From Pseudomonadota bacterium (GTDB lineage: Bacteria > Myxococcota_A > Polyangia > Haliangiales > Haliangiaceae): a stretch of 54,276 nucleotides of DNA. The notes beneath the pieces were generated by a model. It worked only from the letters and a program-made list of their open reading frames with translations. It did no database searches and was not told where the DNA came from. Both the position numbers and the translations under genes were made by a program. This document shows positions 22,654 to 28,828 of this stretch, one piece after another (position 1 is the stretch's first letter; each line of letters opens with the position of its first letter). The stretch covers positions 1 through 54,276 of the forward strand of contig JAEYYV010000093.1 of assembly GCA_023428295.1 (NCBI GenBank), in the 5' to 3' direction.

Positions 22654-22962
22654 ATGCGCGTCCTGGTGTTGCTGGTGGCTCTCGTCGGATGGACGTACGT
22701 GGCCGATGCCAAGAAGCTCGGCTACGTCGATGCGAGCGTGGTCGACGTCAAGGTCTCGGGCGGCGCGCTGCTCGTGACCTGTCACAAAGGGACGGAGGCC
22801 GGTATCGGAAAGGACTGGACGGCCAAGCTCCTCTCCGGCGGACGCGAGATCGCGAGCGCGACGCTGATCCGCTTCACCAGCAAGACGTCGGTCCTCAAGG
22901 TCGACATCACCTTCGACCAGATCCCGAAGGAGCTCGGGTGTCGGCTCTTCCCGCCTAGCTAA
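22654..22962 (+). CDS. Small secreted hypothetical protein (signal peptide)
   Basis: 102 aa. N-terminal MRVLVLLVALVGWTYVADA signal-like. No recognisable domain. Confidence 0.45.
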   Translation: MRVLVLLVALVGWTYVADAKKLGYVDASVVDVKVSGGALLVTCHKGTEAGIGKDWTAKLLSGGREIASATLIRFTSKTSVLKVDITFDQIPKELGCRLFPPS

Positions 22963-25900
22963 CGCTTCGCGAGGCCAGCAGCGATCGTTTGCGCGATCGT
23001 CGGATCGGCGTCCATCGCGGCGGTCCACGCACGCGCGACCTCGAGATACGTCGCGTCGTCGAGGCCGAACTGCGCGATCGCCTCGCGGGGATCGATCGCG
23101 CCCAGATCACGAAGCAACGCGATGTAGTCGCTCGCGCGCGAGATCGGGCTCCCTGGAAGAACCACGCGATCCTTGAACGGCGGCGGCGGCGGCGCGTCGT
23201 CGCCGAGGACCACGCCTCCGCGGGCGCGGAACTCGGCGTAGAACGCCTCGCGGGTCATGCGATCGCCGAGCATCGGGATCGGGTCGCGCGCGAATGCTGC
23301 CTGCTCGCGGATCTGCATCGCCGTGCAGCGCGCGATGACGACGTCGCGATCGCGGCTCTCCGCGGCCTCCGCGAGGAGCGTCGCGGATGCTGCGCGAGCG
23401 CGAGGCGTGACCGCGACCGCGTTCTCCGACGAGAAGCGGAAGCGGATGGCCTCGATCGCGGCGCGCTTTGTACGCCAGCTCTTGTCGGGCGCGTTGGCGG
23501 CCGCGGTCAGATCGCTCGCGTCGATGAGCTCGTAGACAGGATCGCGCGACTTCCCCGGCGGCACTGCGTCGGGGGGCGTGGTCTTCTGCTTCTTCTTCGC
23601 GCGGTCGAGTGTGGCGGCGAAGCTGGCGGTGTTGTCCGGGAGCGGATTCTTCGCGACCGCATCGGAGGCGAGCTTCTCTGCCTCGTCAAAGGCGCCCTGC
23701 CCGATCTTGGCGCACGCGAGGTGATTCCACGCGTTCGTGAGCCACATGAGGTCGTCACCCGCGACGCGGAGCATGTGCTTCGCGATCTGCTCGCACGTGT
23801 CGTAGTCGGCGACCTCGTCGAGCACGCCGGCATACGCATTGAGCTGCGTCGCATCGAACGCGTCGGGATCGAGCTCGTACGCGAGCTTGTATGCGTGGAC
23901 GGTGCGCGGGTTGTCCATCGCGGCGTAGGCGATGCCGCCGTACGTGAGCCATTGATCCGCGCGCACGTACCAGCGGCTCGCGTAGTCGAGCACGGCCATC
24001 GCGTCGGGGAGCTTGCCGGCTTGGTACAGCACGCCCGAGAGGATCTGCGTCGCTTGATCCGGTGTCGCGCGCACGAGGTGCACGAGCGCGTCGGCGACCT
24101 TGCCTTGCTGCGCGAGCGCGAGCCCGAGGTTGCGATGCGCTTCCGCGTTGGTCGGGTCGTACGCGACCGCCCAGCGGCCGAGCTTCTCGGCGCGTGCGGC
24201 GTCGCCCTTCTGCAGCGCCTCGAACAGCTGCGTCGCCACCTTCGCGAAGTCGAACGGGATATCGATCGACAACCTGGACCACGCGTCGGCGAGTGCGGCG
24301 AGCTCCTGGTCACGCCACGCGGGCTCGGCGGCCGGCAGGCCCGCGATCAACACGGACACGGCGGCCGGACCACGACGCGCTTCGAGTAACACGCGCGCGG
24401 CGTGCAGCGCGGGCTTCGCGGAGAGGCCCTGCGTCAGGTAGCACGTCGTGTGTAGCTCGTCGATCGCGTCCTCGAGCTCGATCTCCTTGGCCGCGAGCTG
24501 CGCGACGATCGCGTCGGCCCACTCCTCGGCGCCGAGGTAGCCCGTGTGCAGCGCGAGCTGCGTGGCCTGCGCGACGACCGCAGCGGCCCAGTTCTTGGGC
24601 TGCTCGCGATGCAGGCGCGCGATCGAGGCGGCCAGGACCGCGGCCTCCTCGGGACCCAGCACGCGCGCGGCGATCGTGGCTTGCTCGCGCGCGAAGCCGG
24701 CGACATCGCCCGCGGCGCGCTCGTCGATGCCGAGGCTGCGCTCGACGGTGCCGAGCCACGCGCTACCGATCCAGCGATCCACACGACGGAGCAGCGGCTC
24801 GATCATGCGCAGCAGTGCGCGGGCGTCGCGATCCGTCACGTGCTCGCGATGCGTGCGCACCAGCGCGAGCGACTCCGCCGCGATCGTGCGCAGCGCACCG
24901 GTGATGGGGCTCGCTGGCATCGTCGTGGCGGCGAGGTAGCGCGCGAGCGCATGCGCGGCCATGTACGTCGCGGCTTGTGCGAGTGCACGAGCGTCCTCTG
25001 CGCCCGCCTCCGCATACGTGACCTCGAGCCAGCGCGCGACGTGCTCGTCGGCCTTGCGGATCAGCGTCGTGTCGTCGGAGTCCTTGTCCGGATCGCGCTT
25101 CACCGTGATCCCGTCGAAGAACCTGTCGATCGCCTTCTTGCTGCGCGTGTCGGGCGAGAAGCCGCTCGTCGACGCGGGATCGATCTCGATCGGCGTCACC
25201 TTGCCGAGAGCCCGCGTGACGACAGAGCTCTTCGCGGCACCGGGAACGAAGTCGGCGACATCGCGCGCCATGCGCCGTGCGATCGAGGTAGCACCGATCG
25301 CGACACGCTCGCCGAGCGCGGCCTCCGCGACGTCGATCGGAGCGCACGAGAGCAGCTGCCCGCACCGTGCGATCGCGACGTGCTCGTCCCGCCCCGGCTC
25401 GCCGAGCTCCACGCGCCACATCTCCTCCATGCCACGACGCCACTCGCCCGCGGACAACAGCGCGCGCGCAGCGGCGAGGCGCGCGACCGGCCCCGTGTGA
25501 TCGCGACCGAGGCCGAACTCTGCCCACGCGAGCGCCACTTCGTCCTCGCGCCCTGTCGCGACGAGGGCGTGGAGGAGCGCCGCGACATCGACATCATCAC
25601 CCGGTTGGATCCGCCCGAAGCCCTCGACGGTGCGCGCCGGATCGCCGCGGAAGTAGCCCTCGAGCGCGTAGCACCACGCGACGTAGCGCGGGTCCTTGCG
25701 CCAGCGGGCGAGGATGCGCGTGTGTCGCGGCCACGCCGCCTCGCGTCCCTCGAGCCGGTTCGCACGCAGCGCGATCGCCTCGTCGAGACGGCCGACATTC
25801 ATCAGCGCGTCGCTGACGCACAGATCGACCTGGATCTGATCCGGGTACCACGGCAAGTGGATGTCCATCGGACAGCCGTGGATGCGAGCACTGCGCGACG

Positions 25901-27044: not shown

Positions 27045-28828
27045 TAGACGCCTTCGAGCTCCCCGCGCTTCACGCGCCGCGCGCCCTGGCGCTCGAGCTG
27101 CGCGATCGTCTGCACCGGGCACCAATCGCCATGCACGTAGTAGTCGGTGCCGGGAAACGGACCGCTGACGACGCGTGCGCCCGCTCTCTCGATCGCCGCG
27201 GTGATCTGCTCCTTGTTCAGGTGCTTGAACTCGCCCGCGAGATACACCGTGGCTCCGGGGAAGCCGCGACCGAGCCGGCGCATCACGGCCTCGATCGGTG
27301 CGAGCGATGCGAGATCCGGCTCGGCATCGATCGGTGCAGGCTCCGCGAGGTCGAGCACGCCCTCGAGCCCCTTGGCCAGCGCAGCGATCGCCCGACGCGC
27401 AGCAGGTGCGCGCTCGATCATCCATTGCTCGTCCGGACCGGGGAACGGCTTCAGCGATTCGTCGTCGGTGATCTCCGACGGCGGCAGATCCTCGGCGAGG
27501 ATGCGCGCCGTCAGATCGGGACGCCCCGCGCGATAACAGGCGAGAGCACGGGCACACACGAGCTCGGGCGTGTGCAGCCGCGCGGTCGCTGCGAGCTCGA
27601 GCGCCGCGAACGGACGCCCCCAGATCGCGAGATGCAACGCACCTGCATCGGCGCCCTGCAGCGTCTGCGCAGCGGCCGCGAGCTGCTTCACGCGACCGCG
27701 CCGCGCGAGGTCCTCCATGTACAGATCGCGCACGAGGTGCTGCGACTCGGGATGTGCCGCGACCAGATCGCGCGCGCGCGCCGGATCACCCGAGCCACGC
27801 ACGGCCCAGCCCCACATCGTGTAGAGGTACGCCTCTGGGTGCCGCGCGAACTTGGTCAGCGCACCGAGATCGTCGGCGGCTTGCTTGCAGCGCGGCGCGC
27901 GATCCGCGGGCGCGGTCACCGCCGTGGTGCGCGCGACGCGAAGCCCGCGCACCGTCGGGACCACCGTGGGATGCTGCAGGTGCCACTTCGCGCGCTGGCG
28001 CAACAGATCGCTGTACTTCATTCCCTTCAACGCGGCTTCGAAGCGCCCCAGGTGCTTCTCCCCTCCGAACGTGATCGCGAGGAACAGCATCTCGAGCTGC
28101 TCGTCGATGGCGACATCGGACGAGCGCGACACCAGGAGCGGCACCGCTTCCTCGCCGAGCGTGGCCGCGATCAAGCGCAGCACGCGAATCCGGTGCTGTG
28201 ACGGGATATCGCCGATCGAGACGAACAACACGCGCGCGAGCGGCGGCGTCGCGAAACACTCGAGCGCTTCGCCCCACAGGCCCGGCGCCTTCGCGAAGAT
28301 CGCGGCGGTCATATCGGAGTGCACGTGGCGCAACGCGAGTGGCAGCTTCTCGCCCGCGACCTTACCGGCAGAGGTCGCAGCATCGGCGAGCTTGGCGAGC
28401 GCCTCGTCGGCGATCTGAACGGCATCGGCTGACCACTGCGTCGACGGATGCATGCCGCGCAGCTGCCGATAACCGAGCGTCCACGTCGCTTGCTCGCGCA
28501 CGGGGTCGGGCGTCGACACATCCGTGACCACACGCGCGAGCCGCTTGGCCGTCTCCGCCGAGGGAAAGCGCGCGAGCCAGATGCAAGCGTGCCGGCGCAT
28601 CTCGACGGAGTGCTTCGCGTCGAGCATCCAGTAGCCCACGTCCGCGAGCGACGGATCGGCGCCGAGCCACGCTTCTCCGTCGGCGATCACGCGATCGAGG
28701 CGCTCCGCCGCGAGACCTTCGAGCGGTGCACCATCGCGCGGCACGAGGGCCAGCGCATCCCGCAGGCGATAGCGCAATGCGGGCGGGACCGTGTCCAAGC
28801 TCCCCAGCTTCACGGGCGGTTCGGCCAC
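27044..28828 (-). CDS. Hypothetical protein with C-terminal BRCT domain
   Basis: 594 aa (GTG start at 28828). C-terminal approx 80 aa GATVYLAGEFKHLNKEQITAAIERAGARVVSGPFPGTDYYVHGD parallels the ligase/PARP BRCT pattern (G.T.V.TG.L....R.E....IE..GG.V..SVS.KTDYVV.G). The N-terminal 500 aa is helical with no assignable domain. Confidence 0.55.
   Translation of the reverse strand: MAEPPVKLGSLDTVPPALRYRLRDALALVPRDGAPLEGLAAERLDRVIADGEAWLGADPSLADVGYWMLDAKHSVEMRRHACIWLARFPSAETAKRLARVVTDVSTPDPVREQATWTLGYRQLRGMHPSTQWSADAVQIADEALAKLADAATSAGKVAGEKLPLALRHVHSDMTAAIFAKAPGLWGEALECFATPPLARVLFVSIGDIPSQHRIRVLRLIAATLGEEAVPLLVSRSSDVAIDEQLEMLFLAITFGGEKHLGRFEAALKGMKYSDLLRQRAKWHLQHPTVVPTVRGLRVARTTAVTAPADRAPRCKQAADDLGALTKFARHPEAYLYTMWGWAVRGSGDPARARDLVAAHPESQHLVRDLYMEDLARRGRVKQLAAAAQTLQGADAGALHLAIWGRPFAALELAATARLHTPELVCARALACYRAGRPDLTARILAEDLPPSEITDDESLKPFPGPDEQWMIERAPAARRAIAALAKGLEGVLDLAEPAPIDAEPDLASLAPIEAVMRRLGRGFPGATVYLAGEFKHLNKEQITAAIERAGARVVSGPFPGTDYYVHGDWCPVQTIAQLERQGARRVKRGELEGV

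Follow-up and report, generated by a model that had tools for sequence, protein, structure and literature searches.

A conserved gene pair of Kofleriaceae-type myxobacteria encodes a HEAT-BRCT protein and a giant TPR protein that may form a two-subunit scaffold complex

Most bacteria contain one or two proteins with a BRCT domain and both are DNA enzymes: the NAD-dependent DNA ligase LigA and the epsilon-type subunit of DNA polymerase III (PMC10386641, section 5.1). A bacterial BRCT domain that is carried by a scaffold instead of an enzyme is therefore out of the ordinary. We analyzed a DNA stretch of 54,276 nucleotides (nt) from a bacterium filed as Pseudomonadota and placed by GTDB within the Haliangiaceae of the Myxococcota_A (GenBank assembly GCA_023428295.1, contig JAEYYV010000093.1, positions 1 to 54,276 of the forward strand; the whole stretch is referred to as the window), in which two adjacent genes encode a HEAT protein with a C-terminal BRCT domain (protein A, 594 residues) and a giant tetratricopeptide repeat (TPR) protein (protein B, 1361 residues). 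The window has a G+C content of ~67%, and the best matches of the window genes that were examined came from metagenome-assembled genomes of Kofleriaceae/Haliangiales within the Myxococcota. Proteins A and B constitute a new pair of families that is built from familiar interaction folds, and we consider it rather probable that they are the two subunits of a lineage-specific, chromosomal and cytoplasmic scaffold (adaptor) complex. Literature searches turned up no account of a HEAT-BRCT protein paired with a TPR protein in myxobacteria.

The related loci were recovered from genomes and metagenomes with A as the probe, and only those with enough DNA downstream of A were counted; the scan employed a single peptide pattern, and its 22 genome loci under-sample the family. 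Gene B was located directly downstream of A (L003-L013, L015-L019, L022, L023 and L026-L030) or fused to it (L025) in 24 of the 26 independent loci, and this arrangement extends to proteins with as little as ~30% identity to those of the window. Most of the junctions consisted of an overlap of 1 nt (TAATG, TGATG, TAGTG), 4 nt (ATGA) or 7 nt, or of abutting codons (TAG-ATG, TAG-GTG), and a few had gaps of 25-98 nt; A and B are predicted to be co-transcribed neighbours. The two genes share one reading frame and are separated only by a TAG codon in four loci (L005, L010, L013 and L018), and there is at least one clear in-frame fusion: P0306 (1774 aa, verified on a contig of 387 kb), in which the BRCT domain is followed by a linker of ~30 residues and then by B. 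Further apparent fusions of A and B are P0297, P0308 and P0242, the latter of which looks frameshifted in the BRCT domain. Across 17 loci, the identity of A to its window counterpart was correlated with that of B to its own (r = 0.99), and both genes are under purifying selection (ratio of non-synonymous to synonymous substitution rates, dN/dS, 0.11-0.15 with respect to the two closest relatives). In the distant lineages the flanks differ completely (genes for EF-G, ArgRS, NAD kinase, cytochrome oxidase, HDOD proteins, an FHA-ABC transporter and others), and because the flanking genes are unrelated between distant lineages, the pair represents a self-contained module. The first-pass annotation, which had been made from the sequence alone, had put forward a conserved pair with overlapping stop and start codons, and this is borne out by 24 of the 26 loci, by the natural fusions and by the co-divergence of the two proteins.

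The open reading frames and the TAATG overlap that had been listed for the window likewise hold (Table 1): they are found in the sequence itself, and proteins of 594 and 1361 aa had also been called independently for two public contigs from the same organism. The maximal open reading frame of B spans 22959..27557, and the true start is the ATG at 27044; the reading frame of B opens exactly at the methionine codon of MPAL... in four related loci. A B protein of 1532 aa, starting from the GTG at 27557, was considered and rejected: the extension runs out of frame over A and reads as arginine-rich nonsense, and the homologues begin at MPAL. The Shine-Dalgarno-like GAAGG is situated 6 nt upstream of the ATG of B, and in 12 of the 18 junctions of related loci (the window organism's own two loci left out) the equivalent position is occupied by GAGG(G) or GAAGG. 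The promoter scan recovered no sigma-70-like site, and terminator-like sites were found at chance level. We observed that the spacer of 23 nt between A and the divergent gene (28829-28851) carries a -10-like hexamer, TAGTAT, that ends 9 nt before the GTG of A, and that the hexamers TAGTGT, TACTAT and TAGAAT occur 6-11 nt upstream of the A start in the equivalent spacers of several relatives (L003, L004, L006, L007 and L009). The mRNA of A may be leaderless or nearly so. Neither A nor B showed a signal peptide or a membrane segment when the sequences were read by eye.

The architecture of A was derived from an AlphaFold2 model (predicted local distance difference test score, pLDDT, 92.5; predicted template modelling score, pTM, 0.88), for which the input was an alignment of 17 sequences with 28-77% identity. 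The solenoid that makes up most of the protein appears to be composed of PBS-lyase-type HEAT repeats in its N-terminal half and of TPR/PPR-like hairpins in its second half; the Pfam scan of A gave a HEAT_2 match below threshold. The invariant arginines of A fall within ..VR..A..LG.., which we take to be the signature of PBS-type HEAT repeats, and are therefore probably structural. At the C-terminus of the model, residues 527-591 form a beta-alpha-beta-beta-alpha-beta-alpha unit, in the order of the BRCT fold (beta1-alpha1-beta2-beta3-alpha2-beta4-alpha3, a compact alpha/beta domain of ~70-95 residues). A profile of this region (87 residues, 14 lineages) had LigA BRCT domains as its top three matches in the PDB (E 0.0017-0.0035); the NCBIfam LigA models matched A only at residues 523-568 (E 0.12-0.3), and a Pfam-A scan of A retrieved no BRCT family even at E ≤ 1. 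The BRCT domain that had been assigned to the C-terminus of A is thus supported by the predicted fold and, modestly, by the sequence, through the match of the family profile to LigA BRCT domains. It seems to derive from the LigA type of bacterial BRCT domain and is 78% identical within the Kofleriaceae. A tandem arrangement was not found: only one BRCT unit is present in A, and the rest of the protein is helical in the model.

The residues that would contact a phosphate were inspected in the HMMER alignment, in which 'Y-L-A-G-E-F ... V-Q-T-I' of A is aligned with 'V-I-T-G-E-L ... G-S-K-L' of LigA. Strand 1 of LigA ends with the 'T-G' whose pocket threonine corresponds to A531 (the glycine is kept as G532), and helix 2 begins with the 'G-S-K' whose pocket lysine corresponds to T574. 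The pocket Ser/Thr and Lys/Arg were absent in all 14 divergent lineages, which have A, L, V or D at the first position and T, A, L or V at the second. The phosphopeptide-binding pocket (S/T-G...K) for which a check had been suggested is therefore lacking, both in A (A531-G532...T574) and in the family. This bears directly on the proposed connection to serine/threonine (Ser/Thr) phospho-signalling, according to which the BRCT domain would bind the phosphorylated target of a myxobacterial Ser/Thr kinase. That some BRCT domains read phosphopeptides is established (PMC10386641), a Ser/Thr kinase with TPRs is encoded 3.6 kb upstream of the pair on the same strand, and in L025 and L026 kinase genes are likewise found no more than 8 kb away from the pair. 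However, the domain is single and not tandem, and it misses the pocket residues in every one of the divergent lineages; the kinase gene and its two companions (encoding proteins of 283 and 417 aa) form an insert that occurs only in the closest relatives of the window (L003, L004 and L019) and is missing from most Kofleriaceae loci; the companions of the kinases in L025 and L026 are non-homologous; and proximity to a kinase gene is expected by chance because the genomes are kinase-rich. We consider a phospho-reader quite improbable, and the signalling link was not upheld.

The relation to LigA also suggests another alternative, namely that the pair is a nucleic-acid-linked scaffold that organises repair, replication or RNA repair, and that its LigA-type BRCT domain binds the ends of DNA or RNA, perhaps with the help of an arginine-rich surface of the HEAT solenoid. 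In its favour, the nearest sequence relatives of the domain are the BRCT domains of NAD-dependent DNA ligases, and the BRCT proteins of bacteria are essentially the two DNA enzymes mentioned at the outset; in addition, a gene for an RlaP nucleotidyltransferase is found beside the pair within the Kofleriaceae, and the window also contains an MVP-like/RtcB/RtcR cluster. The T-G...K contacts to the 5'-phosphate, as in LigA and RFC1, are however replaced family-wide, the RlaP neighbourhood is lost outside the Kofleriaceae, the invariant arginines of A are probably structural, as argued above, and A has a net charge of around neutral while B is acidic. We therefore regard a nucleic-acid-linked function of this kind as unlikely.

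Protein B was modelled over residues 1-1200 of its 1361 (AlphaFold2, pLDDT 86.9, pTM 0.84) and is predicted to comprise a small N-terminal domain, an acidic linker, a long helical solenoid and a C-terminal region. The N-terminal domain is made up of eight strands within residues 8-116 and of two long helices (24-43 and 122-136), and is present in every member of the family with the invariant residues R9, P15, R86, E88, L92, G119, W133 and L139, as seen in alignments of B. It had no sequence match in Pfam or the PDB, where single members or profiles gave noise only, and hhalign found no relation to the neighbouring kinase-TPR protein. A TolB-N/LpoB-like domain was considered on the basis of the 'RVAFLLP...' pattern and is not claimed, as no tool supported it. 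The linker (residues 171-225: isoelectric point 4.05, net charge -10) varies in length and is missing from the A-B fusion proteins. In two more distant lineages (L015 and L016), the equivalent of residues ~175-225 contains long Asp/Glu runs, e.g. DSDEEEDSDEEEDSDDDEDEDDDED.

The solenoid of B is an unbroken series of helical hairpins, and the canonical TPRs were recognised towards its end: Pfam gave TPR_2 (28.2 bits, cut-off 27) and TPR_11 (26.9 bits, cut-off 26.8) around residues 943-1000, and the family profile matched a 16-repeat consensus TPR protein in the PDB with an E-value of 1e-24 (positions 932-1123). The TPRs that had been noted in B are therefore supported by Pfam, by the PDB profile match and by the modelled solenoid. 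The C-terminal region, which is largely helical up to residue 1200 in the model, carries the conserved motifs RFRF-SEN and SDY-ALL...LD..Y.EV..W and had no match in Pfam or the PDB with either members or profiles. A Foldseek search of the PDB with the model of B retrieved IFT-A, Ctr9, Ski3, TTC7B, APC/C and OGT (E 6e-8 to 1e-4, template modelling (TM) score 0.10-0.15), which, as far as the model goes, is generic repeat similarity. Sequence searches of Pfam, NCBIfam, PADLOC and the PDB found no catalytic domain in A or B, in agreement with the initial statement that the pair has no recognisable catalytic motif.

The TPR matches of B could also be read as those of a co-chaperone or assembly factor, in which the TPRs clamp the C-terminal tails of chaperones or clients as in HOP/Sti1 and A is the HEAT subunit that holds the client. 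A block of TPRs (profile positions ~1022-1177) indeed matches HOP TPR2A/2B (E 5e-6 to 1e-5), and the C-terminal region of one B family member faintly matches the STI1/HOP DP domain (E 0.23). Against this, the TPR matches are of the generic repeat kind, the DP match is non-significant and was obtained for one of six members only, and chaperone genes are not linked to the pair in any locus. We find this explanation very improbable.

The A family is small, and both families are poor in annotations. Searches at E ≤ 1e-3 gave 388 homologues of A, of which the best 120 have 68-90% identity, and 209 homologues of B, of which the best 120 have 57-100% identity. Most of the best 120 homologues of A had no source name and the rest were named 'hypothetical protein', with Kofleriaceae-type metagenome-assembled genomes as the source where one was named; for the relatives of B, the labels did not go beyond 'tetratricopeptide repeat protein', 'TPR repeat protein' or 'hypothetical protein'. 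When 1.84 billion cluster representatives were searched exhaustively with HMMER, only 114 clusters (at 50% identity) proved to be related to A, the named members of which are all 'hypothetical protein' from uncultured Myxococcota. That the two families are without functional annotation, as had been presumed, is therefore correct; neither has a Pfam family of its own.

A further alternative is that the pair is an anti-phage or conflict system, or the cargo of a mobile element. TPR and HEAT repeats are described as common sensor modules in the conflict systems of multicellular bacteria (PMC7159879), and in L014 accessory genes for eCIS_core, ImmA/IrrE-like and DUF4411 proteins are located between A and B. 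Nevertheless, the proteins contain no NTPase or effector domain; neither the pair nor four neighbouring genes matched any model of PADLOC-DB 2.0 at E ≤ 0.1; and the plasmid and phage collections contained no homologue of A. Moreover, the synteny is stable, the two proteins diverge together in a vertical manner, the purifying selection is strong (with the high identity among the best homologues of A given above), and the neighbours are housekeeping genes. This explanation is close to refuted.

The scaffold complex that we favour would be assembled as follows. Ribosomes that end A would re-initiate on B via the Shine-Dalgarno-like element in the last codons of A, and this re-initiation at the overlap would lead to ~1:1 synthesis and co-translational assembly. 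The order of the domains in the fusion suggests that the C-terminal BRCT domain of A adjoins the N-terminal domain of B. Since the pocket residues are missing, the BRCT domain would not read a phosphate; with the pocket gone and the surface highly conserved, it is most likely a module for protein-protein docking. The two solenoids would offer long concave faces on which other proteins, or possibly a polymer, are brought together.

Several points weigh against this picture. The physical association of A and B is a prediction, the term 'scaffold' was reached by exclusion, and the N-terminal domain and the C-terminal 200 residues of B could conceal a catalytic or ligand-binding site. The fusion P0308 is without the BRCT domain and the second half of A, such that the BRCT domain may be dispensable for the contact between A and B. 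Finally, the linkage has two exceptions: in L014, a Kofleriaceae metagenome-assembled genome and the only locus that splits the pair, ~8 kb of accessory genes (2755-8343; an eCIS_core + OmpA protein, a helix-turn-helix + M78 ImmA/IrrE-like regulator and a DUF4411 protein) separate A from B, and in L024 the gene after A encodes a lipoprotein, and B was not seen within 12.7 kb.

A more far-reaching version of the scaffold is that a LigA-derived BRCT domain was captured by the HEAT protein, which together with the TPR giant would form the first bacterial non-enzymatic BRCT scaffold, a lineage-specific hub for chromosome maintenance or for the recruitment of replication or repair factors. We consider this doubtful and give it a small chance; if true, the pair would be a functional analogue of the eukaryotic BRCT adaptors (TopBP1, BARD1, SLF1) that has arisen independently in Kofleriaceae-type myxobacteria.

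Table 1. Positions of the A-B gene pair, its domains and its neighbours in the window
Feature	Position	Strand	Description and basis
Gene A	27044..28828	-	594 aa, GTG start; open reading frame and translation
Gene B	22959..27044	-	1361 aa, giant TPR-type protein, putative scaffold; open reading frame and translation
TAATG	27042..27046	-	stop codon of A and start codon of B sharing one base; sequence
GAAGG	27051..27055	-	Shine-Dalgarno-like element for B within the last codons of A (..L-E-G-V*); sequence, function putative
A, residues 16-492	27353..28783	-	all-helical HEAT/ARM-type solenoid
A, residues 521-594	27047..27268	-	single BRCT domain, LigA type, without the phosphate-pocket residues
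B, residues 1-140	26625..27044	-	small alpha/beta N-terminal domain; model, alignments
B, residues 175-221	26382..26522	-	acidic disordered linker of variable length; pLDDT 24-31
B, residues 225-1151	23592..26372	-	unbroken helical-hairpin solenoid; model
B, residues ~932-1127	23664-24251	-	canonical TPRs; PDB profile matches to consensus TPR, OGT, HOP
B, residues 1152-1361	22962..23591	-	C-terminal region; alignment, model to residue 1200
Divergent neighbour	28852..29550	+	232-aa secreted protein; signal-peptide-like N-terminus
RlaP-family nucleotidyltransferase gene	29551-30339	-	RNA-repair-associated Pol-beta family; upstream of pair
RlaP-family nucleotidyltransferase gene	34500-35792	-	RNA-repair-associated Pol-beta family; upstream of pair
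102-aa open reading frame	22654-22962	+	signal-peptide-like N-terminus; convergent with B, stops overlapping by 4 nt

The genes around the pair are conserved over a shorter range than the pair itself. The divergent neighbour had been described as a cupredoxin-like gene next to A; it does start 23 nt from the A start, and a cupredoxin-like middle part is plausible yet unproven. Cupredoxins carry the type-1 copper ligands H ... C-x2-H-x2-4-M on a Greek-key beta-barrel. The protein contains an fn3_3/CarboxypepD_reg beta-sandwich at residues 173-225 (Pfam) and, as seen by eye, the sequences TFHNV and CNVHPWM (a C-x2-H-x2-M motif); its match to plastocyanin (residues 92-123, E 0.84) was non-significant, and Pfam gave no cupredoxin match at E ≤ 10. 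It was found beside A in 16 Kofleriaceae/Haliangiales loci and was absent from L015-L017 and L025-L030, and because it is kept beside A within the Kofleriaceae only, it is probably not part of the module. The SDR gene downstream and the RlaP gene upstream likewise hold their places in the Kofleriaceae only, the order RlaP - secreted 232-aa protein - A - B being found in Kofleriaceae loci and not in the distant lineages. The 102-aa open reading frame is conserved in the closest relatives only, with 42% identity in L003 and no counterpart in the other loci.

Some other parts of the window were observed in passing. The region 985-6383 encodes a bacterial homologue, of 822 aa, of the major vault protein (MVP) (Pfam MVP_shoulder, E 5e-21, and Vault_3 repeat, E 3e-11), to which the gene for the RNA ligase RtcB adjoins (3481-4737, - strand), with the gene for the sigma-54 activator RtcR in divergent orientation beside them (4809-6383, + strand). 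Operons of MVP and RtcB have already been described for bacteria (Burroughs and Aravind 2016, as cited in PMC13404743). Rfam and tRNA scans of the window, including the surroundings of the MVP/RtcB cluster, found nothing. The region 9030-19657 contains an alpha-glucan cluster, with genes for a GH77 4-alpha-glucanotransferase, a TreS-maltokinase fusion and the maltosyltransferase GlgE; the cluster is followed by genes for an AAA_5 (MoxR-like) ATPase and a protein with thrombospondin type 3 repeats.

The combination of a HEAT-BRCT protein with a TPR protein of 1361 residues, which are sometimes fused, is an architecture that otherwise recalls eukaryotic adaptor complexes. Conservation of the A and B families is strong within a group of uncultured myxobacteria that is widespread in soils and sediments, and the pair is a clean and self-contained target for the discovery of a new protein complex in bacteria. 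What limits its importance is that the building blocks are common interaction folds and that the known hosts are uncultured.

Among the described systems, the BRCT domain of LigA (PDB 1l7b, 2owo) gave the best sequence match to that of A: both domains are single, C-terminal and ~70 residues long, have the same order of strands and helices, and share the motif G-A-[KR]-[LV] where strand 2 begins. The proteins that carry them are different, an enzyme in the case of LigA and a HEAT solenoid in the case of A, which is without the adenylation, OB, Zn-finger and HhH domains of the ligase (TIGR00575, 10.8 bits versus a cut-off of 444); and the T-G and G-S-K phosphate contacts of LigA have become A-G and T, A, L or V in the A family. 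The likeness of A to BARD1 (ankyrin repeats and tandem BRCT), SLF1 (BRCT and ankyrin repeats), TopBP1 and ECT2 is at the level of the fold only (6-18% identity). In these eukaryotic proteins the BRCT domains are tandem or triple and possess phospho-pockets, and the proteins function in the signalling of nuclear DNA damage or of cytokinesis, whereas A is bacterial, has one BRCT domain without a pocket and is paired with a TPR giant. As compared to the HEAT proteins of the PBS-lyase type (E. coli YibA, 1oyz; CpcE/CpcF, 5n3u; the synthetic alphaRep), A is much longer and extends into TPR/PPR-like hairpins and a BRCT domain, and it has neither a lyase partner nor a phycobiliprotein context. Protein B, in turn, has no whole-protein homology to the giant TPR subunits (TM 0.10-0.15), and its N-terminal, linker and C-terminal parts are its own. 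Its TPR superhelix of ~900 residues is comparable to those of Ski3, Ctr9, TTC7B, IFT-A, the TPR subunits of APC/C and the TPR domain of OGT, all of which are non-catalytic platforms that hold partner subunits.

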